Positions 1,952 through 60,761 of a stretch of 64,000 nucleotides of DNA are shown piece after piece. The stretch comes from Octopus vulgaris (lineage: Eukaryota), in the NCBI GenBank assembly GCA_951406725.2, contig OX597816.1, positions 147,746,001 through 147,810,000 of the forward strand, written 5' to 3'. The position numbers and the translations under genes were made by a program. Numbering within the stretch: position 1 is the first letter of the stretch; every line of letters begins with the position of its first letter. Below the pieces are notes generated by a model. It was not told where the DNA came from. It ran no database searches and was given only the letters and a program-made list of their open reading frames with translations.

Positions 1952-1955
<4 letters not shown>

Positions 1956-2049
<94 letters not shown>

Positions 2050-2173
2050 CGTGTGTGTTTGTGCCTGTGTGAGTGTATGTGTGTCTCTGTATGTGTTTGT
2101 GTGCTCGTGAATCTCTGTGCGTGATTAGGTATATATGTATAAATACGTGTGTTTATACATATACATATATATG

Positions 2174-2209
<36 letters not shown>

Positions 2210-2249
2210 TGCACATGTGCATACATACATACATACATACATACATACA

Positions 2250-2280
<31 letters not shown>
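1956..2280. repeat. Compound microsatellite (TA)n-(TG)n-(TACA)n; representative of dozens of similar tracts in the window
   Basis: Direct reading; accounts for the YIYI/VCVC/YVCM ORFs. Confidence 0.95.
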
Positions 2281-2282
<2 letters not shown>

Positions 2283-3026
2283 TTCACATCAATGAACGAA
2301 TTTTCATCATAGTATTTTGAAGAATATTGATGTTAAGTTCAAGCGCCTAGATTCCACGGTTGTTAAAGAAATCTTCAAAGAAAACATTTCATATTTCTCT
2401 TCATTAAACATGGTTCGAGCATGCTAATGCATTATCGCACTCGTATAAAAATTTAACGATTTACTATAGAATTAAAACACATCGGTATTACGTTACTCAT
2501 TTTTACTCTCATAAGAGAGACCCAATGGTGAATGGGTAAATGCTAAATATTGCACTGTCATCGTCGAATAAGTTGAAAATATATAGAATTGTTTATGCAT
2601 ATTGGTAAAAGGATACAAACTTGTACTGGTGAAGTATTGAATCGATCATGAAAGCATCAAAATTTCGACAGCTGTAAGATTTTATTTCCCAACAGAGCGG
2701 TACAAAACTAAATATTGTAAAGTATTTAGTCTAGCCCTCTACTACGTGTAGTACTGCATCGTTTTCTTTGTCAAAGAAAATGATGCTGTGCAACGTGTCA
2801 TTACTTCTTTAATAGAGTCAAAACTACTGCTCTTAATTATTCTATGCTTTAGCAGAGTAGAAATCCAATAATATTTATAAATTGTTATAAATTGTAGTAG
2901 ATTAGAAGTCGGCAATCATGATCCTGTTGATACTAATACTAAAATCATTTAATGGTCGAGTTGTACATAGTTCATGATAATTCTTATATTGCAATCGACG
3001 ATGTGTTGTGCCAATGGTAAAGTGTA

Positions 3027-3076
<50 letters not shown>

Positions 3077-3078
<2 letters not shown>

Positions 3079-3172
3079 TTAAGGAATGGCTATTTCCGTG
3101 TCTTCTACACAGTTGTTGACCACTAGTGAACGCTAACTGTGTGGAAGACAAGGAAATCAACATTCCTTAACT
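3077..3172. repeat. Imperfect inverted repeat (38-bp arms) abutting a (TA)n tract
   Basis: 3077-3114 agttaaggaatggctatttccgtgtcttctacacagtt is the reverse complement of 3135-3172 with 5 mismatches; central palindrome cactagtg. Confidence 0.85.
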
Positions 3173-3448
3173 CTTCTATTCTTATTCGCAACCTCGGTTA
3201 TCCTGGTCGCCTACCGTTAAATATAAATAGAACTTTTTCATTTTAAACTTGTCGTTTGAGGATATCCCACATACCAGCAAAACCGAATATCGTACTTCGA
3301 TAAGAAAAAAAAAACTGAAACTTGTTTTTTTTATATTTACTATGGATTGTTTGAAGCCAACTTTTTTTCTACACCTCGATCCCTGGATTATGTGTGTAAG
3401 TGTGTGTGTGCCTCTGTGTGTGTGCCTCGTGTTTCTGAGTTTGATTGC

Positions 3449-3480
<32 letters not shown>

Positions 3481-5321
3481 GTGTGACGTTCAGTTCATCT
3501 AGCTGTCAGTAAGTTCCACATGTTGGCTTAGTTAAGAGCTGCATTCAATAGTGATAGAGTATAATTTATAATTCGACATTCATTCGCTTGTAGTCCTGTG
3601 TAGAATGTCACCGAGGGATAGAGTGTTCCATTAAGGGGTCCAGATATTTTTGTTAGTTTATTTAGTATATCATGGCAATGAAGCCTGGACTTTTATCCGC
3701 CAATATGGTAGGATTGAAATCCGACTGTTTTCAGATAAATGACGCAAGTATTCCATCACTTAATAGTTTTGTAATGTTTATTCTGTTCAATGAATGTGGG
3801 GGAAGCATTGAGGAATGTTGTTTCTGATAAAATTTATGATTAGTAGATTATACAGTTTTTCCAAAATAGATATAAATTGAAACTCACCGCAGAACGTCAT
3901 GAGAAACGCGCCAATGTAGAATATATGGTAATAAAATAATAAAACCCAACAATGAATCGAAACCCGCTTACGAAGTTACATTTCCGTGAGTAATATCTTG
4001 AAGCAGGTTTATTAAGTTTACCTGTTTACAGAGCATACATATTCCAGCGACACAGTTTAGAATGGATGACGAGAGCTAGACATGCATACAATCATGTACA
4101 TGTGTATGTGTGTCAAGCTATGTGTTTTATGTACGTATGTATATATGTATGTATGTATATATGTATGTATGTATGCATGTATGTATGTATGTATGTATGT
4201 ATGTATGTATGTATGCATGTGTGCATGTATGTGTGTGTGTATGTATGTATGTATATATGTATGTATGTATGTATGCATGCATGTATGTATTATGTATGTA
4301 TGTATGTATGTATGTATGTATGTATGTATGTATGTGTGTGTGTATGTATATATGTATAATTCATCAACCAAAACTTATCTGAAAGCTGTAACGTTTCGTT
4401 CAAACTACTTTATCATCGTGTGTCGTTATAGATGAAAGGGTATATCGGGCAGCTAAAGCAAAGCTTCTTGCAAATGAATTGTTCTAGAGAAATTGCACTA
4501 CTTCATAAGCTAAAGTTGTAAGCTTTGAGTTTCTTGCTATGTTGCCTGTTAGCAAGTTGCCGGTTTGAAATTGAGACACATAAATAATAGTCTCTTTTCA
4601 TCTAGGACGATCAACAACAATACGAATCGTTAGATAGTAAGCACCGAATAACAACGAACAATATTACTTTAAGTGCAATTTCTCAGAATTGTGGGCTTTT
4701 CCCATTAACTATGAAGTTTACTTGCGTTTTCACTTATCCCATAAATCTTGTTACATCTTCAAGATCACCTGATGTGCTAAGCTAACAAAGAGGGTCCAAT
4801 GATCAAATTAAATTGTGGCGACAATTGTATTAGACAGCGAACATAACGTAATTGATGGCATAAATTACAAAATGCTTTTCAGAACCAAAAATACATAGAT
4901 CGTATAAACAAAACGAATCTGTATGAGTGCGCAGAATGCATATATATGGAAAAAAAAAGGCTAGAATCAAGCCTCATATGGGAGGTGCCAGATATTACCA
5001 ACACGAAACCAAATATGCAAGGCTGGTTGCTTTCGCGTGTGTTGTTCCAAACGCGGCTTTTAAGGAGATACAGCAAATCTGTAAGATGCGTAAAATATAT
5101 CTGTGCCAATTCTGACATTTCTCCGATACAACCAACGATCATTCAGATACCAATATCACCTATTCATGCTTTGCTCTCTCTACGCTTCCTTGTTATACAC
5201 TCCATTATATTGATTTCTTCACCACAACTTTTATTCTCTAAGCATTATTCACTTGCTAATTACAGTGAAAAAAGCAAAACAAGTACATAAAATGGGCTCA
5301 TGGAAGTTCTCACACGTACAC

Positions 5322-5331
<10 letters not shown>

Positions 5332-5414
<83 letters not shown>
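5332..5414. repeat. (GATA)n microsatellite
   Basis: Direct reading. Confidence 0.95.
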
Positions 5415-5415
<1 letters not shown>

Positions 5416-5672
5416 TGCTTTCGACTATAATATATAAGTAGGTTTGAAGGCTATACACAGTTTACAGCAATAATACTTCATCCGAGAAATAAAAGTACTC
5501 AGCAGATATACAGTTGTTCTGTAGAGAAGCGTCATGTCTCTAATATTGTCATTATTTTGAAATAGAAAATAAACATTACGATAAACTTAACACAACACAA
5601 TTTCCTCACTTCATTAGCGTATATGTTTACTTCCTGCTTCTATATGCTTCATTCATTGATCTACTTTTTGTT

Positions 5673-5684
5673 ATAATAATAATG

Positions 5685-5781
<97 letters not shown>

Positions 5782-6220
5782 TAATAATAACATCAACAAC
5801 AACAATAACAACAGCAGGATAGATAGTTGCAGGAAGTAATGAGTAAAGAAGTAAGAAAAAGATTGCCAGCAGTAAAAGCTACCAACAGAAGGTAGCTGCT
5901 AGATATATCTAGTAAGTTCTGTTCCCAGAAGTATAGATATTAAAAATATGGATGACACTAACTTATTGATCTATGCAGGATGGGTAGTAGTTTCTAGAAG
6001 ACTAGATATTCCACAAGGAAAGATTAGAAAAGAGCAAATGTGGAAACGGAGAATGCAAAAAAGAAAAGAGAAGACTTTAAGACAAGGTCTGAGTAGAGTA
6101 GAAGTCTGAAAACTGAACAAGTTAGGAAACATAAGATTTAAATGTTCTCTTGAGAACAGATAATTAGTCAAAAAGAAAGGATGTGGGGCAGTCATCGCAG
6201 AGATGAAACAGTATTTAACA
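5673..6220 (+). mobile_element. (TAA)n tract followed by a decayed N-terminal fragment of a Dong/R4-like LINE ORF
   Basis: Translation includes LIYAG..VVSRRL..MWKRRMQK, resembling the WKRRL segment upstream of R4-clade RT; stops present. Confidence 0.5.
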
Positions 6221-6479
6221 TGAAGGGGCTTTTCTTGCAACTGTTTTATCATGATCCGTTGCTGTTCCAGTTTTAGTTTTGATTTACGTTGTTTTACAAC
6301 TTTTGGTGTTTCTTCTTGTTCTTCATAATCTTTATCCCCTAAGTTTTGTATTGGACAGCTTCCTTAAAGACTGGTAACAGTTTTCTTTTATTCGTGGGAT
6401 TGTTTTTTTGTGGGGGGGGCGGGGCTATGTCTATTATTTTTCCTTTCTTCCGAAGTAGGTATTTTTGTAGTGCTATGGT

Positions 6480-8170
6480 GGTTATTTTGTAATAGTTTTC
6501 TAGCTGTATAAGGCCTCTACCTTATATACATTGTATATATAGTCTTTCTTAGGGTGCGCATCCTAAGTAGTGTCATTATTTTTCTTGTTTTCCTGTCTAT
6601 TTTGGTTTGTTCATTTAGAGTGCAGTTAAGAATATTGTAGTTGTAACTTATATCTGAGGCGGCTAGTGTGTTGATACCTATTATCTTGCTTTTCGCATTG
6701 AGCTCTGTTTTCAATATTAATTTTACTCGTCTATAGTATTCTTTTTTCTCGCCTCTTTCGTGTGTGTTGTATAGTATTTAGTTCATACATTCCTAAGTAT
6801 TTGTACGTCTGGCTTTGGTCTAATACTCTTATTTCATTTGCTTAATCGAGTGCGATGTTTCTACCCTTAACTAGTTTTCCTATTTTCAAGGTTGTTTTGA
6901 CAAATTTTGACAAATAGACATTTCATGCTTATTTGTTTAGTAAATCCATGTGCTGTCTGTAGTAACGTGTCCAGCTGTTTATCATTTGTAGCGTACAGTT
7001 CTGGATCATCCGTATACAAGAGATGACTGAATGTTTTGCCGTAACAGTTGTATCTATAACCAGTTCTGCTTAGCATGTTAGATAAAGGTACCAGTGGCAA
7101 GCAGAAAAGGAGTGGAGAGAGCGTCTTTCCCTGGAATATTTCTCTTCTAACGGGGATGGCTTTGTTTTTCTCGAGGCCTTTTTTCTCAGGAGCTGTAGCA
7201 CTGTCTGCCATTTGTTCATGGACTGTTTTATATATCTTATGAGTATTGGTGCTACCTTGTTCGTAGCAAGAGTTTCTAAGATCTATGTGTGTGGAATACT
7301 GTCGAAAGCCTTTCGGTAATCGATCCAAGTCATACTTTGACGCTTCTTCTTTCTGCGGTTGTCATCACTTAGGGCTTTATTGATCGGTAGATAATCTTTA
7401 CAGCTGTATGAGCACTTGCACCATCCCTTCTACTCGTCTGGAAACAGGTGGTGTGTTTCTCAGATGTTTCCCATTCTCTGCGATTTTATTGTAGTAAAGG
7501 CATTGTAAATTGTAGCAGACAATTATCGGTCTGAATTTTTGTGAATTTGCCGTTTCAGTGGATTTAGCAATTATGATAGTTTTATTCTGATATGCACTGA
7601 ATAACCCATTCTGCTGGTATCCCTTCATTCTTTGGTCGTATCTTACCATCTTTGCTTTCTTTGCAACGAGGGGCTGTTTCAGTTCCTCCATTACTAATTT
7701 CAGGTCCTTTCTGTCAGTATCATACTTCCTGTTCAGTGCCCTATATTTTGTTCGCTTTTAAGCCTTCCTTTTTATATTCGCTCTAATACAGAAATATCTT
7801 TCGAGAGCATATCTAACCCCGCCTGTATTCTTTTTTGCACAGTAGATCTTTTCTTTTATCACTCCCATTATATTTCTCTTACTTGACATCAACACCCACA
7901 TTTTCTGCTACAACAATATTTGCTGCCTTGATCAAATTATTTTTTTCTGTGATGTTTTTTTCTTCTGATGTATTTCAGAATTTCTTTCATATTTTTTAGT
8001 TCTTGGTTCAATTTCCACCGATCGAACTTTTGAAGGTTGCGAATAATGTCGCTCTCGTCCTGCTGTAGCCTTGCCTTTATTGCTGTAGACTGCCTTTTGC
8101 CCATATTTTTGCACATTTTGCTTTATTGTCTTCTTCTAAACCATCTGTATGCCTCTCATCGAGCAAGCTA
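6480..8170 (-). mobile_element. Decayed Dong/R4-like (RLE-type) LINE, RT and pre-RT fragments
   Basis: ORF 6867-7328: RREIFQGKTLSPLLFCL and HLLYTDDPELYA (RT GIFQGDSLSP and YMDD motifs); ORF 6517-6714: AKSKIIGINTLA..IDRKTRKIMT. Confidence 0.85.
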
Positions 8171-15405: not shown

Positions 15406-16178
15406 GGCGAGCTAGCAGAATCGTAAGCACGCGTGGCGAAATGCTTAGTCGTATTTCGTCTGCCGTTACGTTCTGAGTTCAAATTCCGCCGAGGTCGACT
15501 TTGCCTTCCATCCTTTCGGGGTCGATTAAATAAGTACCAGTTACGCACTTGGGTCGATATTATCGACTTAATCCGTGTGTCTATACTTGTTTGTCCTCTC
15601 TGTTTTTAGCCCCATGTGGGTAGTAAAGAAATAGGCATTTCGTCTTCCGCTACGTTCTGAGTTCAAATTCCGCCGAGGTCGACTTTGCTTTTCATCCTTT
15701 CCGGGTCGATTAAATAAGTACCAGTTACAAACTAGGGTCGATATAATCGACTTAATCCGTTTGTCTGTCCTTGTTTGTCCCGTCTGTGTTTAGCCCCGTG
15801 TGGGTAGTGACGAAATTGGTATTTCGTCTGCCGTTACGTTCTGAGTTCAAATTCCTCCGAGGTCGACTTTGCCTTTCATCCTTCCTGGGTCGATTAAATA
15901 AGTACCAGTTACAAACTGGGGTCGATATAATCGACTTAATCCGTTTGTCTGTCCTTGTTTGTCCCGTCTGTGTTTAGCCCCGTGTGGGTAGTGACGAAAT
16001 TGGTATTTCGTCTGCCGTTACGTTCTGAGTTCAAATTTCTCCGAGGTCGACTTTGCCTTTCATCCTTTCGGGGTCGATTAAACAATTCCCGGTTATGCAC
16101 TGTAAACGACTTAATCCCTTTGTCTGACCTTGTTTGTTCACTCCATGTTTAGCCGCTAGTAGGCAATATCGAAATAAA
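15406..16178 (+). mobile_element. tRNA-derived SINE (Deu/Nin-like central domain) as a four-unit tandem array with a 184-bp period
   Basis: Head ggcgagctagcagaatcg (A box) and gagttcaaattcc (B box); core aggtcgactttgcctttcatcctttcggggtcgattaaataagtaccag; units restart at 15634, 15818 and 16002. Confidence 0.85.
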
Positions 16179-17823: not shown

Positions 17824-17829
<6 letters not shown>

Positions 17830-17908
17830 AGAAGCCGGTGATTGTCCCACGCTGATGGCGGATCAATACTCAAAACCCCGGGTCTGTGTGTATCAAGTCA
17901 GTTTGAAG

Positions 17909-17910
<2 letters not shown>
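17824..17910 (+). repeat. Inverted copy (about 86 bp) of 18151-18237, flanked on both sides by (TA)n; contains a degenerate hammerhead
   Basis: Exact reverse complement of 18151-18237 by eye. Confidence 0.92.
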
Positions 17911-17955
<45 letters not shown>

Positions 17956-17969
17956 TATGTATGTATATA

Positions 17970-18002
<33 letters not shown>

Positions 18003-18004
<2 letters not shown>

Positions 18005-18172
18005 TGATGTATATTTTCCACTTAAATGTGGCTAACCCTTAAGGATGGACGCTACTGTAGCTTGTAACCCCAGGAAAGCATCTCCTCCAGCTGGCTATTG
18101 ACACTCTTTCTGTGCCCTATCAATATTTGCAAAGTGAGGTCATCCTTCCCATCTTCAAACTGACTTGATACA
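18003..18172 (-). ncRNA. Putative structured 3' RNA module, homologous to 27003-27163
   Basis: Shares ggNtgacctc, gtgtca, agctNgagg and the order of covarying hairpins with the 27 kb module. Confidence 0.5.
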
Positions 18173-18213
18173 CACAGACCCGGGGTTTTGAGTATTGATC
18201 CGCCATCAGCGTG
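18173..18213 (-). ncRNA. Degenerate minimal type-I hammerhead ribozyme (PLE/retrozyme type)
   Basis: Minus strand: cacg CUGAUGg cggaucaauacuc aAAA ccccggg UC ugug; stem I cacg/ugug, near-palindromic helix III; two core defects. Confidence 0.55.
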
Positions 18214-18552
18214 GGACAATCACCGGCTTCTCTTTATTATACGCACAAGTCCTGAATACAGTGGGGACATACGTAAACATGCGGGAACAAAAAACATATG
18301 AAAGAATGAATTACAATGAATTCAATTAAAAGGAATATGAGACGGTTTTCTTGGTCCCGCTCCGAGACGAAACCGTGATTTCGTCTTTACAATCAAAGGT
18401 TCTTACAGTCTTTTCTTTTTTTTTCCTTTTTAATCTCGTTCTTTTTCTTAGTCTTTTGTCGTTGTTTTTTTATCGTTTTTTTCCCCTTTTTTTCCTTAAA
18501 CTTTTTAAGAATCAATTTTCTCGTTTGAAGTACAAATTTTACTTACTTGTTT

Positions 18553-19546
18553 TTAAATTTTCGTAAAGGGTTTCAAATCTTCTAATTCCACGACCGGTGG
18601 GAGCTCGTCAAACTCGATTTTAACGCTCAGCGGGTCTATGAAATGTCCATACATCTCTCTCAACTTCAAAAATCTCTCTTGATCTATGACGATTCCTTTA
18701 GTGTATACCGAGTATTCTCCTGGCGGCAGCCTTACTCTTATTACCGATTTATATTTTACAATCGTTTTCTCTATTTCTTTACTTTGGGAATACGTGACCA
18801 AATTGCACTTATATCTCTTCCTTTTCACTTCTGCTTGCTTCGGCTCCGGTCCCGATTTGTTCGGGCGTGCAGAAACATCATAACCAATTTTTATAAACGC
18901 TTCCTCTTTCTCCCTGTTGTAATGCTGTTTTTCCTGTGTGCCTTCTTTCACTACTGCTTCTGTTGGCGCTTCACACCTATTTCTTTTCTTCCGTCTCAAT
19001 CTCTTTTAGCCTTTCTTAACTGTCTGGGGAAGAATTCACCCGTTTCTTTCTCTTCCTCGTGTTTACTACTGTGAAGGGTTCCTCCACTCTATCTGTATTT
19101 TTATTGGTACACCTCTTCGGTATTGTTTTCTTCACTTTTCTTCTCTTCGTTTTCCTTCTCGGAAAAACCTGTTTCATGTGCCCTTTTTTGCTGCATAGGA
19201 AGCATGTTGGTGGTCTTCCTTCTACTGTTATTCGATGTCTGGTGTATTCCGGGAGTATTATTTCCTCTATTATACTATGCAAGTCTTCCAAGAATACCTG
19301 CATGGTCACTTCGATGCCATATCCCCACCAATTGAGGTTTTGGGTCCTCGTTATCTCGAGGATCTCTACCCCATCCTTCATATCGTGCATTATGGCTGCT
19401 ACCACCCATTCCTCCTCGTTTTCGGAGGGCACTCTTCCAATTCTCACTCTGGCACAGTACGTCGGAAGTAATATCCATTTCGTTGGCCGTAACAGGTCCC
19501 TGGAGTGATTTATGGCATCTTCTTCATTGCCAAACCTTACTTCCAC
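18553..19546 (-). pseudogene. Disrupted gag-like/ORF1-like protein with a CCHC-type zinc knuckle (retroelement-derived), no RT
   Basis: ORF 19016-19546: ARVRIGRVP..RITVEGRPPTCFLCSKKGHMKQVFP (CX2CX4H, last Cys lost), basic linker; continues after a frameshift/stop in ORF 18553-18999. Confidence 0.7.
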
Positions 19547-19549
19547 TGA

Positions 19550-20300
19550 ACAAGGAAAACTAATACAAACGAAGAAAACAAAAGACTGTTTTCAGTCTCT
19601 AATGAAGCTGACAAATACAAAAAAGCAGCCATAATACCTAACAACTGTGAAGAAAAAGAAGAAACAACAAAATCTGTAAGACAAATGAAATCCAAACTAA
19701 AACTGGAACATCAACGGATCATGATAAAACGGTGGCAAGAAAAGTCCCTTCATGGGAAAATACTAGGTTAAATTAAACAGAAAAGACATACACAGGCAAA
19801 ATTCCAACTTTGGGTGAGAAGCTCAGGACTCAAAGCAGGGACTGAAGGATTTGTAACTGCAGCACAAGACCAAAGCCTCCCCACCAGAAATTACCAAAAA
19901 CATATAATGAAAAGAAACGTAGCAAGTATCCGCTGAATATGTGGCGATGGACAAGAAACAATAAACTATATTGTCACTGGCTGCCCGGTCCTGGCTAAGA
20001 AGGATTATATTCGCAGACATGACAGAGTTGTGACCTATGTACACAGGAAGCTATGCCAACGTTATGGAATGACAGCAGAAAAAAGATGGTGTAGGCACAC
20101 ACCAGAAAAGTTCACAGAAAATGAGAAAGCAATCATACTCTGGGATATGCCAATACAAACAGATAGAGAAATTAAGGTCAATTGGGCGGATATAGTTGTC
20201 AGCTTTCATCAAGATGAAAAAATGCTTTCTAGTCAATGTATCAATACCAAGAGATGACAACGATTATCTAAAAGAAATGGAGAAACTTGCAAAAACAGAA
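19550..20300 (+). mobile_element. Decayed Dong/R4-like LINE fragment, same subfamily as 9503-10410
   Basis: High nucleotide similarity to 9630-10100 (agaagctcaggactcaaagcag..gcagcacaagaccaaagcctcccc..ctctgggatatgcc); WQEKSLHG motif. Confidence 0.9.
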
Positions 20301-20431
20301 ACAAAAAGTTTTTAAAATAGTGCTCAAGGGAACAACTTATATCCTACGAAAAACATGCTGTATGTTTTAATCTGTAAATATTATCAAAAGTGTTTTGAAA
20401 TGTGCATTATATAGGCGCAGGAGTAGATATA

Positions 20432-20830
20432 GGCGCAGGAGTGGCTGTGTGGTAAGTAGCTTGTTTACCAACCACATTGTCCCAGGTGGCACCTGCGTGG
20501 CACCTTGGGCAAGTGTCTTCTACTATAGCCTCGGGCCGACCAAAGCCTTGTGAGTGGATTTGGTAGACGGAAACTGAAAGAAGACCGTCGTATATATGTA
20601 TATATATATGCGTGTGTATGTTTGTGTGTCTGTGTTTGACCCCCTAGCATTGCATGACAACCGATGCTGGTGTGTTTATGTCCCCGTTACCTAGCGGTTC
20701 GGCAAAAGAGACCGATAGAATAAGGACTGGGCTTACAAAAGAATAAGTCCCGGGTCGAGTTGCTCGACTAAAGGCGGTGCTCCATCATGGCCGCAGTCAA
20801 ATGACTGAAACAAGTAAAAGAGTAAAGAGT
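20432..20830 (+). mobile_element. tRNA-derived SINE, family 2 (ggcgcaggagtggctgtgtggtaag head, ccttgggcaagtg core)
   Basis: A-box-like tggctgtgtgg; other copies at 22412-22880(+), 37495-37751(-), 44387-44780(+) and 52505-52893(-). Confidence 0.8.
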
Positions 20831-20942
20831 ATAGGAAACACCTTTTACTGTCTTTTTCACATCAGACTATCATCTTATAATCAATTTATTTTAAAACAAA
20901 CTTCTAATTTTCTTTGTTTTAACCGACATTCTCTAGAACAAT

Positions 20943-20995
<53 letters not shown>

Positions 20996-21024
20996 AAGTG
21001 GAGTTGTAAGGTACCGCACAAGTG

Positions 21025-21071
<47 letters not shown>

Positions 21072-22411
21072 AAGCTGAAGATATTCTAAGTTTTCTCCGG
21101 TACACGGAGACAACAATCCACAGTGAATATTTCAATCCTTTCTATTCATAAGTATCTGGCACCTTTCATTTTATTTTCTCAATTCAATACGAATATGCAA
21201 CGTCCTTCCAACACATACTAATCAAATATTCAGTCATTTCATATAAGCTGATTTTAATGTGGTATTCATTGCAACACCGCGTGACTCTAATCGGTACAGA
21301 ACCAAACTAACTGAAGGAGATTCTTTTAGAATTCAATACTAATAAAAAGTTTCTTGTCGCACATAGGGGTTTAGTAGTCTTATCTGATAAACTATCCATT
21401 AATAGACACAGATTAGGTTGCTTAAGCTCAAAATGGGTAATACTTCGCCATATCTAAATATACACGATTATGAGATACTGTACTGAAGTAATCTCAAATA
21501 TTAATCTTATTTTCAAGAATCTATGTTTCATGCAGAAAGCTATTCAAAGTTATGTTGCGGAGTTGTGACAAATTATAATTTTCTTATTTCCTTTTTGTGG
21601 ATATCGAAAGTGTAAATATGGTTCATTTGATTCAGACACAAGAAATAAAATTGTGTGCTGTGCACGTGTGTCTAGCCACTATGACCGCCTTTTGTCCGTC
21701 TGCACTTGAATATTTCCATCGTCATTGCGTTGCGATCGCAATGTATTGATTCACTAGAACTTGCTAGGACTGACTCCTCCCTCGGCACGCCGATATAATC
21801 AATTGTGAATTGTGTACACCTCCCAGCAAGAAGCTGGTTCTCGCCCAAACAAATCTTCAACGTAGGATGTTAGCGGTGTTGCTAAAAGCAGGTGGAAATC
21901 ATGATAAATGATGAGTTAAATATACAGACAGCTTTATTTGTTGTATCTAAAACCAGTGTTTTTTTCACAATATGAGAATGTGCGTGTACATGGCTCTATG
22001 TGAATGTGTGCATGTATAGTGTGTGTGAGTGAGCGACGATTAATCACACGTATATAAGTATATATATTCCCAAGTATATGCTTATAAATGTATATATGTA
22101 TACATATATGTATAAGTGTAAATAAATGTGTGTATGTGTGTGTGCCTTGTGTGTGTATTACATATATATATGTATGTATAAGTATATGTATTTATATTAT
22201 ACATATATATTATATATATTATGTAATATATATGTCATATAAACATTATGTATTATATGTAAGTAAATTTTATATTCATATACATATATATATAAATTTA
22301 TATATATATGTACGTATGTATGTATGTATGTATGTATGTATGTATGTATGTATGTATGTGTGTATGTATGTATGTATGTATGTATGTATGTATGTATGTA
22401 TGTATGTATGT

Positions 22412-22880
22412 ATAGGCCTAAGCGTACCTCTGCGGCAAGAAGTTTGCTTCCCAACCGATTTCTTCAGTCCCACTGCGCGGCACGTTGGGGAAGGGCCTTC
22501 TGCCGCACCTCCGAGATGAAGAAAACCTTGTGAAAAAATGTAATAGGCGGAAACTGAAAGAAGCCCATCGTATATATAAGTGTATTTGTGTGTGTGTGTG
22601 TACGTATGTGTACCTGAGTGTTTGTGTGTATGAGCGCGCGTGTGTGCGTATGTTTGTGTGTATGTGTCTGTCTGTACACGGGTTTTTTGTGTCTCTATCC
22701 TTTACCACCGCTTGACCACCGGTGTTGGTGTTATTTAAATCACCATAACGCAGCGGTTCAACAATAAAGCCGATGAAATAAGTACTACCCTTAAAATAAA
22801 TAAGCTCTGTGGTCGATCCACTAGACTAAAATTTTCAAGTTAGTGCCCCGGCATGTCCAAAGGAAAATGATAAGAGATAA
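22412..22880 (+). mobile_element. Diverged family-2 SINE
   Basis: cggaaactgaaagaagcccatcgtatat and other blocks shared with 20432-20830. Confidence 0.65.
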
Positions 22881-22970
22881 AAGTTAAAGTTATATATCAT
22901 ATACATTCATATATATACATATATGTATGTATATATATGTACATACATATATACATACATATATATATAT

Positions 22971-24404
22971 TCATGGAACGAATAGTCAGAGGGAAGCTGA
23001 TCACCTTCCTTGAAGAGAATGACTTGCTGCCCGACACCCAACATGGTTTCCGACCAGGGAGAAGCTGTTTAACTCAGCTCCTACAACACTATGACTGGGT
23101 GCTGAAACGGCTGCTCAACCACTCAAATGTGGAAGTGATATATCTCGACTTTGCAAAGGCCTTTGATAAAGTCGATCATGGAATGATATGTCACAAACTG
23201 CGTGATCTCAACATGGTTGGAAAACTGGGAGAATGGCTTCATGGCTTTCTGAAAGATAGAGGTCAGGTGGTGGTGGCCAATGGGGCCACTTCCATTAACA
23301 CGCAAATAGTGAGCGGTGTTCCGCAGGGCACTGTTCTGGGACCACTACTGTTCATAATGGCCCTCTCAGACATGCCCTCAGCCACGCAGAGAGCCACAAT
23401 CACAAGTTATGCAGATGATACAAAAGTTTCACAGGCAATACAGAACCCTGAGGACACTAAACACCTGCAATGTGAGCTGGACAAAATATACAAGTGGGCC
23501 GAAAAGAATAGCATGCAGTTCAATGCTGAAAAGTTTCAAGCTCTATACTATCAGCATGCAAAACTAAATGCAATACCCAATGAATACACTGGACCCGGAG
23601 GAATAGCAATCCCAGAGGCACAATCAGTGCGTGACCTAGGTATTTACATGAGTGATGACGCGACCTTTCGTGTACATGTTGCTAAATTGGCAATGAAATG
23701 TAGACGACTGGCCGGATGGATCCTCAGAACCTTTAGAACAAGAGAACAAGAAACCATGATGGTCCTCTGGAGGACACTTGTCCTAAGCCACTTTGACTAC
23801 TGCTCTCAGTTATGGTCACCATCCAGTGTCAAGTTGATCACAGAGCTCGAGGCGATCCAACGTAGCTACACGAAGAAGATAGCCTCTATGCAGAATGTAA
23901 GCTACTGGGAAAGACTCAAGAGATTAAAACTATATTCCCAGGAGCGTAGGCGGGAAAGATATGCCATAATATACATCTGGAAGATCCTGGAGGGACGTGT
24001 CCTGAACTTTGGCATCGAGAGTTACGCAAATGCCAGAACTGGGCGCCACTGCGTGGTGCCTAGGACTCCAAACTTGCCATCAAGATGTAGGACAAGATTC
24101 TGTGATAGCCTGGGCTTCCGAAGCCCACAGCTCTTCAATATCCTCCCAAAGAACCTGAGAGACCTGCATGGGGTGGATGCAGATGTCTTTAAAATGAAGC
24201 TGGATCTCTTCCTGTCAGGTGTCCCGGATGAACCAACTTCACGGCAGGAGGGGCAGATGAGGGCAGCTGCATCGAACTCTCTCATGCACTAAATGGCAGT
24301 TGCTAGAAAGCTTTCGTGAAGTGAAACCAAGTAGCAACACCAAATGGCGGTGCCCCAGCATGGCCACAGCTCATAAGCTGAAACTAGAATCAATCAATCA
24401 ATCA

Positions 24405-24407
<3 letters not shown>
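22971..24407 (+). mobile_element. 5'-truncated CR1/L2-group LINE with uninterrupted RT ORF and (TCAA)n 3' tail, inserted in (TA)n
   Basis: QHGFRPGRSCLTQLL, YLDFAKAFDKVDH, SGVPQGTVLGPLLF, YADD, VRDLGI, DYCSQLWSP, YWERLKRLKLYS; ORF open to 24292; tail aatcaatcaatc. Confidence 0.95.
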
Positions 24408-24481
<74 letters not shown>

Positions 24482-24525
24482 GTATATATATGTACATACA
24501 TATACATATATATGTATATATATAT

Positions 24526-24703
24526 GTTACCTTCGAAACACGCATGGAGTCGAACTAGGGATAGCTGATGAAGGGGAATTTTCCTTGTATTGTTTGTCTT
24601 GTACTCTGTTTTTTCGTTGTTAAAAAAAAGTCCGTTTCCATGTTTGTTTTTACGTTTTCGTTTCTCGTTGAGTTCTACGTCTATTTGTGGTGTCCTGTAC
24701 TCA
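24526..24703 (+). mobile_element. (TA)n-embedded repeat fragment with hammerhead-like core boxes in permuted order
   Basis: ccttcGAAAc..gTC..ctagggatag CTGATGA aggg, followed by a T-rich segment; flanked by TA repeats. Confidence 0.4.
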
Positions 24704-24773
24704 CATATATATATTTATATATGCATGTATATATACATGTAGATGTAGGTACGTACATATATGTATGTATGCA

Positions 24774-24854
<81 letters not shown>

Positions 24855-24865
24855 CGTCGATAAAT

Positions 24866-25172
24866 ACTCTGTCGCTTACGAAGACGAAGGTTCCAGTTGA
24901 TCTGATCAACAGAAAAGATGCTCGTGAGTTTAACGTTTAAGTGACTGAACACTCCACAGACACGCGCACCCCTTCACATACATCTAAAAGGAGATTCAGT
25001 GTGACAAGTCTGGTCCCTTGAAATACAGGTACTACTCGTTTCTGCCAGCCGAGGGGATTGGAACACAGTGAAATAAAGTATTTTGCTCAAGGATACAACG
25101 CGCCACTTCGAATTGAATTCGCGACCCTATAATCGCAAGCCGAACACCCTAACCACTAAGCCACGCGCCTTC
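24866..25172 (-). mobile_element. tRNA-derived SINE, family 3 (diverged)
   Basis: Minus-strand head gaaggcgcgtggcttagtggttagggtgttcggc; body similar to 49300-49680. Confidence 0.75.
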
Positions 25173-25701
25173 ACATAGATACATACATACATACATACAT
25201 ACATACATACATACATACATACATACATACATACATACATACATACATGCATGCATGCATACATATAAATTTAATGATAGGAGATTGCAAATAGGTTTTA
25301 ATAGCGAATGATAAGAATAAGAAAATAACAAGGAAAAAGAAAGAAGCAAACGCCATTTCTACGCCGCGACTATTTCCCTCCAGTCCTTTAAACGATGTTA
25401 ATGGCTCAATAACAACAACTTCAAAAATAAAAGATGAAATCACGTCCACAACAAACAACAGCAACAACAGGTAGCGAAAACAATATTAGTATGCTATTAT
25501 ATGGATCGTAGAGCATTCGTTAAATTTCTCTATGGCAGCCGAATGTTTAATAGTAGTATCATGCGTATTAATAAAATGCCCAAATAGCCGTAAAAACGTA
25601 TATGTCTAACATTTGTACGTATGAATGTGTCTGCAAGAATATGCATACCTGTATGTATGCACATATATACATACACACGCGCGCACATACACACACACAT
25701 A

Positions 25702-25752
<51 letters not shown>

Positions 25753-26263
25753 ATAAATGAATAACGAATGTTATTTCTTTCTATATACTGTCATATGTAT
25801 GCATGTATGTATGTATACCTATATATGTATGCATATATATATATATATATATATAATTAGTCACCCATAGAGAAGCATGCATGTGCGTCTATGCTCATAG
25901 AAATTATAACTATACTTGATTTCATGCCCTGTCATACATGTAGAATACATTCTCTCCGTACCACTGCATGCAATCTACACCTTAGCTTTCTCTCTTTCTC
26001 CCTCTATCACACTCCACTAGACACGCGTACATACACGCGTATAAGCACACATGCACATAAATGCATGCACACACAAACAGACACACAGACACACACACGT
26101 CAGAACATTCACACATGTGATTCGACATGCGTAGACGCCTATGCCCATGTCTGTGAGATTATAACGGAAGATATACGCTTGACGTTCAGAAAAGAGATTG
26201 AAAGGCAACTGATTATACATATAGTCAATATTCATGCGATGGCTTATTGAATCCATACACACA

Positions 26264-26362
<99 letters not shown>

Positions 26363-26384
26363 TGATTGATAGATATATATATAT

Positions 26385-26418
<34 letters not shown>

Positions 26419-26420
<2 letters not shown>

Positions 26421-26550
26421 GTTTCTTTATTAGCCACACAGGGCTGCACACAGATGGGACAAAGTACAAGGTAGAGCTTGGGGGGGGATAAAAAAGGGGG
26501 TTTGGTTTTCGATCAAAAGGGGTCGTAAAAAGGAAAAAAGAAAAAAAATA
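26419..26550 (-). mobile_element. 3' UTR end of a putative LINE inserted in (GATA)n; tail shared with family-1 SINE
   Basis: Minus strand ccttgtactttgtcccatctgtgtgcagccctgtgtggctaataaagaaac then (TATC)n. Confidence 0.6.
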
Positions 26551-26698
26551 GATAGATAGATAGATATTGATATAGATATATGTCAGACAGAACCAAAAAA
26601 AGAAAGATTTGGGGAATATTTGCAGTGAAGGACATTTCTTTTGTGCAAAGCAATTAGTAGAGCTCAATGAAAATGAAAATAAGGATTAAATTATATAA

Positions 26699-26732
<34 letters not shown>

Positions 26733-26849
26733 TAAGAAAGAAAAATATGGAAAACCGCAGAGAAGGTTTGTATATTAAATTTTATGCTAATATTAAGATC
26801 ATAATAAAACAGTGTTGTATTACAACATCATATAATAATATAATAGACT

Positions 26850-26888
26850 GGGAGTACCGACTTCGCGTCTTACGCTTATCAAACTTCC
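26850..26888 (-). ncRNA. Minimal type-I hammerhead motif with U3-A8 core (one substitution in GAAA)
   Basis: Minus strand: ggaagu UUGAUAA gcgu aag acgc GAAg ucgg UA cuccc; perfect 4-bp stem II, imperfect stem I. Confidence 0.6.
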
Positions 26889-26937
26889 AAGGTCTTAGAA
26901 ATCAGCCATATATATATTTATATATATATATATATAA

Positions 26938-27328
26938 TAGAAATATTAAAATTACTAAGTTTCTCTAAAGGAGATTACGGCAGCGTTACTGGATATTAAT
27001 AGATATCGCCATACTAATATGGCAGTCTAAATATAAGACTAAAGCTGTCGTTGATTAGCTCCAAGAGGCCACCGCCTCTAGCTAGCCATATGACACACGA
27101 ACCTGCGTCCATTACAAGCTTCGAACAGGGGAGGTCAGCCGCTTCACCTTGCTAGTCAGACATCTGCAGACATGTTTCAGGGTTGTTGCCCTTTATCAAT
27201 GCAGCATAGTCAGAACCAGCAGGTGTCGCTACTGACCGTCTGTTCGAAGATTTTATTTACCTTAAAAGAAATATTAAAATTACATGTCTGCTGATGTCTG
27301 ACTAGCAAGGTGAAGCGGCTAACTGTTA
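26938..27328 (-). mobile_element. (TA)n-embedded Penelope-LTR/retrozyme-like module with HHR, structured 3' RNA and inverted partial duplication
   Basis: 27137-27175 is inverted at 27282-27320 (1 mismatch); HHR overlaps the inner end of the left arm; TA flanks. Confidence 0.7.
27164..27204 (-). ncRNA. Minimal type-I hammerhead ribozyme, apparently intact (U3-A8 variant)
   Basis: Minus strand: cugca UUGAUAA aggg caacaa cccu GAAA caug UC ugcag; 5-bp stem I, 4-bp stem II, palindromic ACAUGU helix III. Confidence 0.8.
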
Positions 27329-27437
<109 letters not shown>

Positions 27438-28157
27438 CATATATATATATATATATATGTATGTATATATATATGTATATATACGTAGGCGAATACACAC
27501 GCACGCACACACATACAACCATACATATGCATATATACATATAGAGATCCTTATACTGATGTGTGTTCTTGTAGTGCGTGAATGTGTGTGTATGTGTATG
27601 TGTGTGCGTATAGTTAGGAATACATATAAGGATATCTAAAATTAAGAGACACTTGACAATAAAATTAAGTTAAATATTGAAATGAATACGTAATATATTC
27701 TACATCTTTATTTATGGCAGCGTTATACTTAAAAGGAATATTACACATATTAACAGAATTGTCCAGATAACCGTAAAAACGTTTATTCCTAATGTTCACA
27801 TCCTTAAGTACACACACACATGCATGCATGCATGTACACATACATGCATGTATACATATGCATATGCGCACACACATATGCCTATGTATGTATATGAGAT
27901 GACAATATGAAATCATATACATACACACATGCCCTTGCACATAAGTACTGTTCACATATATTTCTTATAACTTTTTACATACGTAGATATACTCATGCAT
28001 TTATGCATATCTGGATGTTTTCCATGTCTTCAAAGTTTGTATGCAGCTATTAAAACCGACATTAAAATTCAGATAAAACTGGTAAATGCAGTAATGTTTT
28101 AGTGTGGCCTGATAGAAAACTAATGCACAATCTGCCTTGGTTATGCTTTCATATTGG

Positions 28158-28523: not shown

Positions 28524-29556
28524 ATGAGGGGGAGGAGGATTCGGAGGAGGAGAAAGAGGGGGTGGAGGCCAAGCCGACGAATTCTGCTGAAAAGATTTCG
28601 ATGTGTGATCATTCTATCAGCTTTTTTCTTCATAAATAGAACCCAATGTGCTCTTTAAGAAAAGTACGATTTTAATGTAATGTGGTCGCTTTTCCTCATT
28701 GTTGTCTCGATTCTTGAGGGAGCCCCACCCCACCAAGTGTCACTTGCGCCTGAAACCAGGCCACATTAAAAAGAACTGTCCCCAGGACCAAAGTAAGGTC
28801 CTGGAACAGCTTGCTATGGAAGAATCCCCACCTCCTCTTTCGGAGTGAGAGATGGAGTCAATGGAGATCTTCCCGAAAAAAAGAGGAAAAAGGAAGAAGG
28901 TGGGAAACAATGGTTGCCCACCGAAGGACCCCAAGGTTGCGGGAGAAAGGGAAGATCCTCCGGTTAAAGCGGAGGAAACTACACCCTCCCGTAGCAAAGG
29001 GGAGAAAAAGAAGAAAAATGGGGCAGTGCCGACTGTTAATACACTACCGGCATATTTCGAAGCCCCGTCGGTGGGTATTGTGCCACCAACGGTGGATGTT
29101 GAAGCCTCGACCCATGTGGAGGATGAATTTTCGGTATTCTTCCGTAGGGGAGATGCGGTTGGAAAGTTCACTAAAAAGTTTGCCAGGAGAGGAGACATAA
29201 CCTGCATTAATGATCCTGGATGGCCTCCGCAGGTAGCTGTGGATGTCATCTCCGACACGGATCTTTTCACGGTAATAAACTCCCTCCCAGAAGATGTATT
29301 CCGCTTCCGTTTAAGGCGCCCTGACCTGGCACTATCGGTGTGCTTAAGCGACGCTTTGAACTTGGTCGGGTACCAGCGGGGCGGAAAATAGTAAAAATTA
29401 AGGGGCTGTGTGCCTCATACTGAAAGGGCATATGGCCCATAAGAGAAAATGTAATAGGCCTGATGTCACATTTGTAAGGACATTGTGTCATTTTTGGTAA
29501 GAGGCTTAGTGCCTCATTGTAAGGACCTTGTGGCCAATGGAACAATAGTAAGAGGT
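28461..29556 (+). mobile_element. Decayed gag-like (CCHC) retroelement fragment after (TAG)n, with a hairpin-rich 3' UTR
   Basis: LEGAPP..CHLRLKPGHIKKNCP (CX2[C>R]X4HX4C) at about 28710-28780; ORF 28852-29391; hairpins gggctgtgtgcc..ggcatatggccc and gaggcttagtgcctc. Confidence 0.6.
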
Positions 29557-32821: not shown

Positions 32822-33385
32822 GGCGAGCTGGAAGAAACGTTAGCACGCCGGGCGAAATGCTTAGCGGTATTTCGTCTGCCGTTACGTTGTGAGTTCAAAT
32901 TCCGCCGAGGTCGACTTTGCCTTTCATCCTTTTGGGGTCGATAAATTAAGCACCAGTTACGCACTGGGGTCGATGTAATCGACTTAATACCTATGTCTGT
33001 TCTTGTTTGTCTCCTCTGTGTTTAGCCCCTTGTGGGTAATAAAGAAATAGGTATTTCGTCTGCCGTTACGTTCTGAGTTCAAATTCCGCCAAGGTCGACT
33101 TTGCATCTCATCCGTTCGAGGTTGATAAATTAAGTACGAGTTACGCACCGGGGTCGATGTAATCGATTTAATCCGTTTGTCTGTCCTTGTTAGTCCCCTC
33201 TGTGGGTAGTAAAGAAATAGGTATTTCGTCTGTCTTTATGTTCTGAGTTCAAATTCTGCCGAGGTCGACATTGCCTTTCATCCTTTCGGGGTCGATAAAT
33301 TGAGTACCAGTTGTGTACTGACATCGATCTTATTGAGTGGCCTCTCCCCAAAAGTTTCGGGATTTGTGCCTAGAGTAGGAAAAAA
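32822..33385 (+). mobile_element. Family-1 SINE as a three-unit tandem array; last unit has an alternative 3' tail
   Basis: Units restart at ggtatttcgtctg (33050, 33220); final tail cctctccccaaaagtttcgggatttgtgcctagagtag. Confidence 0.85.
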
Positions 33386-60614: not shown

Positions 60615-60670
60615 AGAGAATTTTAAAAAAACCCATTTATTTTGAAGACTGAAGGCGTTTTCTTTTAAAG

Positions 60671-60710
<40 letters not shown>

Positions 60711-60761
60711 CTTTAAAAGAAAACGCCTTCAGTCTTCAAAATAAATGGGTTTTTTTTAAAT

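Follow-up and report, generated by a model that had tools for sequence, protein, structure and literature searches.

Penelope-type reverse transcriptases (RTs) are the closest relatives of telomerase. In the published accounts, as far as their accessible text goes, Penelope-like elements (PLEs) are marked by tails, partial tandems and inverted copies (Craig et al. 2021, PMC8557442), a U3-A8 variant of the hammerhead has already been described (PMC4209133), and the Poseidon RT, modelled as a dimer, starts at two internal positions in a stem-loop and needs downstream RNA (Frangieh et al. 2024, PMC11167929). Circular RNA has been shown for mussel retrozymes of 350-390 bp (Cervera and de la Pena 2020, PMC7229834), newt satellite 2 is a hammerhead repeat with a reported internal snRNA-type promoter (PMC2220036), and the target-specific LINEs of the Tx1 clade include Tx1 in Tx1D, Keno in U2 genes, and Tx1-Mar (PMC4494074).

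The window analysed here, 64,000 nucleotides of Octopus vulgaris contig OX597816.1, carries two minus-strand modules that are 5'-truncated copies of homologous 349-365-nt hammerhead repeats, i.e. animal non-LTR retrozymes. Both modules had been noticed in a first-pass annotation, and its cleavage sites (18177/18176 in module 1, 27169/27168 in module 2), hairpin order and quoted helices were all recovered. The local alignment of module 1 with module 2 scores 72.5, against 36.1±5.5 for dinucleotide shuffles, none of 1000 being as high. The proposed kinship with Penelope elements and retrozymes is borne out by the hammerhead repeats with their (TA)n targets, partial tandems and inverted arms. The features of module 2 are as follows.

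26934..27262, minus strand: main arm, a 5'-truncated family-B unit (-94 to +237 of the unit, counted from the cleavage site)
27164..27204, minus strand: minimal type I hammerhead with the U3-A8 core variant and a short palindromic stem III, predicted cleavage 27169/27168
27119..27249, minus strand: rod helix closing the hammerhead, from predicted folds
27092..27109, minus strand: hairpin H1
27056..27088, minus strand: hairpin H2 with an AGCU/UGG internal loop and a GRUG loop, the most conserved motif
27044..27051, minus strand: 5' strand of the long-range helix P3
27008..27040, minus strand: hairpins H4 (27024-27040) and H5 (27008-27023), within P3
26991..26993, minus strand: fixed end site 1, single-stranded, the inferred RT start 1, from family end mapping
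26977..26984, minus strand: 3' strand of P3, outside the module as first annotated
26962..26974, minus strand: hairpin H7 (CUC..GAG), lying between the two end sites
27263..27332, plus strand: rearranged inverted arm, starting at end site 1 (27332)
26908..26936, no strand: (TA)n target that borders module 2 on its 3' side
27329..27483, no strand: (TA)n target where the inverted arm ends

The main arm runs from 27262 to 26934 rather than ending at about 27003 as first proposed, and stops at fixed end site 2 in (TA)n. It lacks the promoter-like element of the family-B unit and is 95.8% identical to a natural tandem monomer at locus L046. The 5' arm of the rod, at 27232-27249 and onward, is predicted to pair with 27119-27138 and onward, and end site 1 lies about 9-11 nt 5' of the 3' strand of P3. 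The inverted arm consists of a site-1 piece (13 nt, E 0.88 taken alone), then unit positions -7 to +35 (27282-27323) and lastly a same-strand piece of unit positions +216 to +236 (27263-27283). Module 1 and its surroundings comprise the following.

18001..18226, minus strand: module 1, the stretch of a family-A unit that runs from its Tx1 target site across the hammerhead up to fixed end site 1 in (TA)n
18171..18215, minus strand: degenerate type I hammerhead, predicted inactive (site 18177/18176)
18100..18116, minus strand: H1
18065..18097, minus strand: H2
18051..18058, minus strand: 5' strand of P3
about 18036..18045, minus strand: H4
18018..18031, minus strand: H5
18227..19549, minus strand: Tx1-derived element, 5'-truncated and with ORF1 only, attached immediately 5' to the hammerhead
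17824..17910, plus strand: 87-nt inverted duplicate of 18151-18237, with 0 differences in 87 nt
17926..18002, no strand: (TA)n/(TG)n target that borders module 1 on its 3' side

Module 1 as first delimited forms the 3' end of a composite that extends to 19549, and it lacks the 3' strand of P3. A hammerhead had been assigned to both modules; the core is intact in module 2, with the U3-A8 variant, and degenerate in module 1, which has CUGAUGG for CUGAUGA (A9 to G) and has lost G12 of GAAA. Intact cores are present in 23 of the 30 best copies of the module 1 family and in 28 of the 30 best of the module 2 family. Since both window copies lack the promoter-like element and the ribozyme of module 1 is degenerate, both are probably inert products. 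The 87-nt duplicate matches its neighbour even in the private mutations and so reflects a local duplication, or else an artefact of assembly, rather than a second arm of the insertion. A hairpin gctac/gtagc considered in module 1 was dropped; it is not kept in A2-type copies, and its bases form the 5' strand of P3.

Genome-wide, a first look gave 2484 and 2575 repeat candidates for the two module families. The H2 motif has 4369 and 1974 exact matches and the H4/H5 motif 1071, with 0 in reversed controls for either motif, and a motif scan of metagenome contigs gave no match. The repeats occur as dispersed monomers and as tandem units of 349-365 nt (27 found, some chimeric), a length within the range of about 170-400 nt expected of non-LTR retrozymes, each unit having one type I hammerhead, with up to three hammerheads in a row. 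The unit itself is non-coding, the ORF beside module 1 belonging to the nested Tx1 derivative. Predicted folds of the 27 tandem units as circles have z values from -1.3 to -10.7 (26 below -2.9). Families were sampled with three motif patterns, by taking for each pattern its first 30 loci, which all lie on contig C1; the sample is therefore biased towards copies that keep these motifs.

At least six families share the predicted fold, with about 51% identity between the farthest aligned. It is more extensive than first described, with the long-range 8-bp P3, further hairpins, and the rod, which is predicted in families A, A1b, B, B3 and C with differing sequence. The string ggNtgacctc, at first given as a shared motif, is found in 1 of the 30 best copies of the module 1 family (2 of the 30 rows being mis-anchored) and recurs in other families as a rod strand; it is the 3' strand of this long helix and not a free-standing motif. 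Folded alone, the two hairpin clusters are modestly better than shuffles (z -1.9 and -2.2), and the whole module 2 arm gives z -5.35. When 11 B monomers and 7 from A/C (51% mean identity) were folded separately, the structures agreed: of 77 A/C pairs, 28 fall in columns identical to those of the B fold and 63 within 2 columns.

Covariation was assessed on the named structure, which was derived from the same sequences as were tested. In two tests, 92.5% and 86.8% of its cells are paired, against 31-50% when the structure is slid. Double changes occur in 10 of 33 and 18 of 37 pairs, controls being weaker here than for cell counts, as 19 and 26 of 500 shuffles reach the observed number. A tree-aware count gave 22 joint changes in 34 pairs, against 9.5±2.9 in the nulls (0 of 300 as high), with B rows shifted 3 columns for P3/H4 here and in the structure mapping. 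P3 contributes 9 of the 22 and keeps its pairing in 116 of 127 rows, H1 contributes 3, and H5 none. Among alternative states, 95 of 116 shared and 228 of 409 private ones are paired (p 1.5e-7, dependent on a star-like tree and hence of little weight), and the strand comparison of G-U with A-C gives a weak contrast (253 versus 146 cells, 11 versus 8 pairs). The loop sequences AGCU/UGG, GRUG, GCCA/UGGC and CUC/GAG are kept. An 8-nt palindrome in H2, considered as a dimer signal, is broken in B2 copies, where AGCU alone remains. The excess of compensatory changes over nulls upholds the earlier suggestion of selection on the fold, and the covariation indicates that the families keep it, in its predicted helices, by compensatory change.

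The first-pass annotation had a 170-200-nt RNA released by the ribozyme as the functional unit, possibly itself an undescribed ribozyme. The unit is instead the 349-365-nt repeat; the covarying P3 and the rod need sequence outside that module, and the presence of the rod calls for a unit-length RNA rather than a 170-200-nt fragment. That the hairpin cluster is a second ribozyme or an independent non-coding RNA of this size, freed by the hammerhead, is very improbable in our view. Such an RNA would fit the invariant unpaired motifs of H2 and the hairpin domain's want of any Rfam covariance-model match beyond the hammerhead: a search with the window and two monomers gave only Hammerhead_1 (32.2 bits, cut-off 34) and chance matches, those to the window being solely microsatellite-driven among the 150 matches listed out of 175. 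The covarying helices span the whole unit, however, the 5' ends of 52 insertion arms reveal no second fixed cut, and the sole 3' boundary near +175 is one of two fixed insertion ends, not an RNA end.

These two sites account for the 3' ends of 43 of the 52 distinct arms. They flank the 3' strand of P3 and the next hairpin, H7, and recur as loose ends in contigs of other runs, none of these runs being on record as RNA. The spacing from site 1 to P3 is a constant 9-11 nt in B, A and C; the two sites are about 60 nt apart in B and about 43 nt in A and C, and delimit an optional tail between two putative internal start sites. Both finish in 2-5 nt of AT-rich microhomology to the target. Of 47 insertions, 24 are two-armed, with their arms at opposite sites in 19, at the same site in 1 and off-site in 4 (p 4e-5 for 19 versus 1). 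A start at most about 7 nt from the cleavage site is seen in only 5 of the 52 arms, and 15 of 25 B arms read through the hammerhead. Such read-through arms, like the covariation of the rod, would be an indirect hint of a unit-length circular RNA. The Penelope-type features of 5' truncation, partial tandems and an inverted 5' arm are all present.

Because the fold surrounds the two fixed end points, it is likely a signal gripped by a borrowed RT, and an RT recognition or priming signal, one of the roles first suggested, is its likeliest role. Our favoured reading, which we hold to be probable, is that of two homologous retrozyme families of about 360 nt whose fold is a likely scaffold for a borrowed Penelope-type RT/endonuclease with two fixed starts. 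A tandem source copy would be transcribed from an snRNA-type promoter-like element in the previous unit, and two minimal hammerheads would cut as a dimer to give a unit-length RNA, probably circularised. This would fold, as the covariation suggests, into the rod plus H1, H2, P3 enclosing H4/H5, H7 and H8. To judge from the scars, a Penelope-type protein, probably with two RT sites, would nick (TA)n, with priming by 2-5 nt of microhomology at site 1 (in the P3 loop) and site 2 (3' of H7). The outcome would be a main arm with an inverted arm back to back to it, both truncated at the 5' end and often crossing an uncut or religated hammerhead, thereby giving partial tandems. A more specific proposal, which we advance tentatively from the sequences, is that in animal retrozymes, in addition to the hammerhead, H2, P3/H4/H5 and H7 may form a conserved protein-binding domain holding two Penelope-type RTs at the two start points; this would be the first defined RNA cis signal for PLE enzymes, and could carry kilobase cargo such as the Tx1-derived gene of module 1.

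The AT-rich microhomology at both sites means that local sequence could set them without the fold. The repeats may then be retrozymes whose fold acts in RNA metabolism alone, be it in circle stability, host-ligase ligation, control of the hammerhead or nuclear export, with AU-rich single-stranded patches that match (TA)n setting the ends. Retrozyme circles are generally highly self-paired in the accessible account (PMC7229834), and the position of site 2 differs between B and A/C. Generic stability, on the other hand, needs neither the fixed loops nor the constant distance between site 1 and P3, and arms do not end in the other AU-rich stretches of the unit; we regard this alternative as unlikely. 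Part of the conservation may also act at the DNA level, since H8 overlaps the promoter-like motif, a point that likewise favours a metabolic role. In 5 of 7 A/C monomers this motif, ATCAG(T/C)G, a candidate for the PSE-like element of an snRNA-type promoter, precedes an ATCG-like start by 58-59 nt, and family B has a weaker match (ACAAGT/ACCAGT); in 9 of 10 U2 loci, ATCAGT lies at -57 to -61. Newt satellite 2 is likewise a hammerhead repeat, with an internal snRNA-type promoter reported there and a promoter-like motif here. Judging by the titles of Coats et al. 1994 and Green et al. 1993, its domains are said to be conserved across salamander families, and the latter may already describe conserved non-ribozyme domains.

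The first-pass annotation had also proposed looking upstream, in full-length copies, for an ORF with RT and GIY-YIG domains. None joined to the repeat was found in cis at the loci examined, and the ORF 5' of module 1 resembles ORF1 of Tx1 LINEs. No autonomous PLE with this fold was seen at 30+19 inspected GIY-YIG loci of 6136 candidates; these are mostly Neptune-like elements with a different 3' end, and the domain matches at L099, L202 and L218 proved to be independent neighbours. The units could nevertheless be pseudo-LTRs (pLTRs) of an autonomous Penelope-like family, with the fold as its cis signal and the short copies as truncation products. Xenopus retrozymes are described as related to PLE pLTRs in the accessible part of one preprint (bioRxiv 10.64898/2026.07.22.740005), and the inspected candidates are 49 of 6136. 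In the set of loci that was scanned for similarity to PLE proteins, no co-oriented PLE ORF was attached on the 5' side of the hammerhead, and the units self-close as 349-365-nt tandems, which makes a pLTR origin improbable.

The element adjoining module 1 has broken ORF1-like frames at 19019-19591 and 18556-19005 (the latter with a zinc knuckle) and a 3' UTR with AATAAA. The window copy retains ORF1 alone, while full-length relatives have, besides an ORF1 with a CCHC knuckle, an ORF2 with APE, RT and zinc finger. A full Tx1-like LINE (ORF1, APE, RT, zf-RVT; top Atlas match 'Transposon TX1 149 kDa protein family', score 0.97) lies inside the family-C unit at L194, and of 17 copies that have ORF1 only and an intact 3' end, 16 are located at a retrozyme unit. 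From this it might be argued that the LINE is the mobiliser and the fold its recognition signal. We consider this highly doubtful, as the Tx1 3' end is present in only 1 of 90 unbiased loci and Tx1 copies generate their own 13-16-nt target duplications (seen at L063, L194 and off-target L068) and stacks, whereas the units show the PLE pattern of two internal sites in (TA)n and back-to-back arms. A Tx1-like 3' end also adjoins one U2 gene (L276). Module 1 is a retrozyme+Tx1 composite, likely carried along by the route of the retrozyme, through which such composites appear to be re-mobilised; at L062 the inverted arm includes part of the LINE. Fixed-site insertion in another repeat, target duplication and stacking are shared with Tx1-clade LINEs as described in the accessible text of PMC4494074; the differences are that the target here is a hammerhead retrozyme and that the composites appear to be re-mobilised. 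Tx1 in hammerhead repeats was not found described in the open-access literature.

These results bear on how Penelope-type RTs choose RNA and start site, and on which enzyme moves animal retrozymes. The families constitute a natural mutagenesis series, with thousands of insertions, two mapped putative start sites and named covarying helices. If the fold is a portable RT-loading signal, it would explain the tails and inverted arms of PLEs and suggest a compact handle for RNA-templated insertion. The element class is already known; the helix-level covariation map of a retrozyme fold outside the ribozyme is what the present analysis adds, and no description of that fold was found in the open-access literature. 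Going by the accessible text of the cited papers, the octopus repeats resemble metazoan non-LTR retrozymes (PMC7229834; bioRxiv 10.64898/2026.07.22.740005) in having non-coding units, tandem or dispersed, that each contain a single type I hammerhead, in a unit size close to the 350-390-bp mussel repeats (PMC7229834), in the predicted self-paired circle, and in that PLEs are proposed as mobiliser. Circular RNA and cleavage have been demonstrated for those retrozymes and are predicted for the octopus repeats. The accessible text of those papers (PMC7229834; Li, Clavereau and Pollet) gives per-element MFE folds only, whereas here helices covary across families and two insertion ends are mapped on the fold. 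With PLE pLTRs (PMC8557442, PMC4209133, PMC11167929) the repeats share the minimal hammerhead, palindromic stem III and U3-A8 variant, and with PLEs in general the 5' truncation, partial tandems, inverted 5' arm, AT-rich or (TA)n targets and an optional tail between two internal RT start sites. They differ from PLEs, as these are described in that text, in that an ORF with RT and GIY-YIG was not found in cis, in a tail of 43-60 nt versus 30-40, and in microhomology of 2-5 nt, where an anole PLE was reported to start at a non-homologous site.

The minus strand carries both modules that the first-pass annotation described, each with a hammerhead ribozyme followed by the same series of hairpins. 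Features of the window, and one other locus to which it is compared below, are as follows.

15451-16082 and 32866-33312: 184-bp tandem arrays of a common SINE-like repeat
17824-17910: 87-nt inverted piece near module 1, identical to a neighbouring copy
18001-18226, minus strand: module 1 (family A)
18227-19549: 5'-truncated, ORF1-only element beside module 1
22874-24289, plus strand: 472-aa frame matching RVT_1 (E 6e-24); it belongs to a LINE fragment that lies between modules 1 and 2 and is unrelated to both
26934-27262, minus strand: module 2 (family B)
27263-27332: rearranged inverted arm of module 2
28849-29388, plus strand: 180-aa open frame that may be part of a LINE ORF1 and matches nothing in Pfam at E 0.1
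60643-60738: perfect inverted repeat with (TA)n at its centre
L194 (G000:C1:21247500-21257400), about 1950-7270, minus strand: full-length, degenerate Tx1-like LINE in a family-C unit

The two modules are homologous, their local alignment scoring 72.5 against 36.1±5.5 for 1000 dinucleotide shuffles, none of which scored as high, and the predicted cleavage sites map where they had been placed, at 18177/18176 in module 1 and 27169/27168 in module 2. The end assigned to module 2 (about 27003) proved too short, the copy reaching 26934. The hammerhead that had been read in both modules is intact in module 2, a minimal type I ribozyme with the U3-A8 core variant, but degenerate in module 1. Because A9 is changed there and G12, the general base in hammerhead chemistry, is lost, the module 1 ribozyme is probably dead by established hammerhead chemistry; the core is intact in 23 of the 30 best relatives of module 1. 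The inverted piece at 17824-17910 we take, on its sequence, to be a local duplication or artefact. The U3-A8 variant has been described from Schistosoma Penelope-like elements (PLEs) (PMC4209133). A subfamily found at L113 and L170 has the core CCGAUGA (U4 to C).

Both modules belong to high-copy families, with 2484 first-look candidates for that of module 1 and 2575 for that of module 2. Exact matches to the H2 hairpin motif numbered 4369 and 1974 and those to the H4/H5 motif 1071, with none for the reversed controls; the counts come from separate patterns that may overlap. Tandem copies define a unit of 349–365 nt, and motif sampling distinguishes at least six groups (A1, A2, B, C, D and E, plus subgroups), of which B is alignable with A/C over the whole unit at a mean identity of 51%. 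Family B also occurs in contigs of runs X16, X17 and X8 (organism labels C, D and B; compared at L039:1560-1930), and its loose ends there coincide with the mapped insertion end sites.

The fold was predicted from 18 natural monomers, folded one by one as circles. It comprises a rod that closes the hammerhead, hairpins H1 and H2, a long-range helix (P3) enclosing H4 and H5, and then H7 and H8. H2 carries an AGCU/UGG internal loop and a GRUG loop, and the rod is retained in the predicted folds of five monomers compared, despite their quite different sequences. P3, a predicted 8-bp helix, was missed in the first-pass annotation because its 3' strand falls outside the module.

Strands of helix P3 by family
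Family A: ACAGTAGC/GCTACTGT
Family C: ACAGTAAC/GTTACTGT
Subgroup B3: ACGGCAGC/GCTGCCGT
Family D: GTAGTAAC-type

Of 77 pairs that A/C support, 28 occupy identical columns in B, and 63 lie no more than two columns away. Cells of the named structure are paired in 92.5% (18 rows) and 86.8% (27 rows) of cases, versus 31–50% with slid partners, and double changes affect 10 of 33 and 18 of 37 pairs, respectively, counts matched by 19 and 26 of 500 shuffles. The covariation that had been claimed from two copies extends across the families. Of 127 rows collected, 10 chimeras were excluded and one duplicate was merged, and the B rows were shifted by 3 columns at P3/H4. On the tree of the remaining 116, joint changes in the 34 pairs number 22, whereas matched random partners give 9.5±2.9 and none of their 300 sets reached as many. 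These changes are distributed over P3 (9), H2 (8), H1 (3), H4 (1), H7 (1) and H5 (0); H8 and the rod lay outside the count and were assessed by eye and from per-copy folds. The hammerhead is the sole Rfam match and the hairpin domain matches no named family there. Within the literature covered, which leaves aside the supplement on mussel retrozymes and the primary papers on salamander satellite 2, no conserved fold outside the ribozyme is described for animal retrozymes.

Insertion scars were sampled as arms, each being one inserted piece, from loci chosen by motif (the first 30 on contig C1 per pattern), and 8 rows were removed as repeats of one arm or duplications. Arms end mostly at two fixed sites, positions here being counted from the cleavage site. 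In B these are +176-178 and +229-237, where 19 of 25 arms stop; in A/C they are +164-175 and +215-225, which account for 24 of 27 arms. Most of these arms run on into (TA)n. Site 1 lies within the P3 loop, and in B, A and C alike some 9–11 nt separate it from the P3 3' strand that follows; site 2 is located after H7. Contigs of other runs break at both B positions. The 5' ends of arms are scattered (5/52 within about 7 nt of the cleavage site), and 15 of 25 B arms traverse the hammerhead. An inverted arm is present in 24 of 47 insertions, and in these two-armed cases the arms mostly use opposite sites, with 19 having one site per arm, one having site 2 twice (p 4e-5 for 19 against 1) and four having an off-site arm. 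Module 2 obeys this rule, its main arm running to site 2 and its inverted arm to site 1, and module 1 ends at site 1.

The ORF1-only element beside module 1, a type with 179 candidates, encodes a protein with a CCHC knuckle that is 32% identical (E 4e-24) to ORF1 of the Tx1-like L194 LINE. The L194 LINE is flanked by a 13–14-nt duplication starting at the predicted transcription start; the composite as a whole ends at site 2 and bears an inverted arm at its 5' end. Among the best 20 of the 179 candidates, the 3' end is intact in 17, of which 16 are nested in the retrozyme unit, directly 5' of the hammerhead. Some copies are stacked, and one (L068) is off-target, flanked by its own 15-nt duplication. 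The upstream half of the unit is missing from all five on-target truncated copies, the window's included (L061, L062, L073, L075 and L080), and one of them has an inverted arm that leads from the end of the retrozyme on into LINE sequence. This pattern suggests that composites of retrozyme and Tx1 are copied via the retrozyme route; in L076, by contrast, a stacked truncated copy is joined to the upstream half. A Tx1 end was found in only 1 of 90 unbiased loci, and Tx1 is therefore a passenger rather than the mobiliser. At locus L200 (G000:C2:85833000-85842900), a single retrozyme target carries a stack of Tx1-derived elements, at least three in number and of two kinds, whose 5' end bears an inverted composite arm.

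Comparison with U2 snRNA genes points to a candidate promoter element: in 9 of 10 U2 loci ATCAGT stands at -57 to -61, and 5 of 7 A/C monomers have a matching motif 58–59 nt upstream of an ATCG-like start. The match in family B is weaker, and both window copies lack the element. If this promoter is used, transcription would start downstream of the rod's outer 5' arm, and only a multimer or a unit-length circle could form the rod. For newt satellite 2, an snRNA-type promoter is reported at second hand (PMC2220036). At L276, the sole U2 locus of the ten without ATCAGT, a Tx1-like 3' end (AATAAA) directly adjoins the first base of the U2 gene.

GIY-YIG and RT reading frames had been proposed as something to look for upstream, and the fold was joined to none in the 49 loci, of 6136 GIY-YIG candidates, that were inspected with the model of the fold; we therefore infer the mobilising enzyme from the scars only. 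Loci L085-L110 hold an abundant young Neptune-like PLE with a 781-aa frame, at whose 3' end a U3-A8 hammerhead occurs along with numerous CCAAT/CRE-like repeats. At L159:3485-4560, immediately behind a B array, lies a PLE of a further type; it is 5'-truncated and has a hammerhead-like motif of a different kind close to its 3' end.

On the loci inspected, the repeats are not autonomous PLEs. They are very probably retrozymes, and they behave as a non-LTR retrozyme moved by a PLE, displaying the testable features of that class. Cleavage, circularisation, promoter use and a role of the fold in loading the reverse transcriptase are predicted steps, and we moderately favour the whole chain. The tail, tandem and inverted structures seen in the retrozyme scars are likewise described for PLEs (PMC8557442), and the anole Poseidon protein is reported to use two internal reverse-transcription starts, with both strands extended and a dimer model proposed (PMC11167929).
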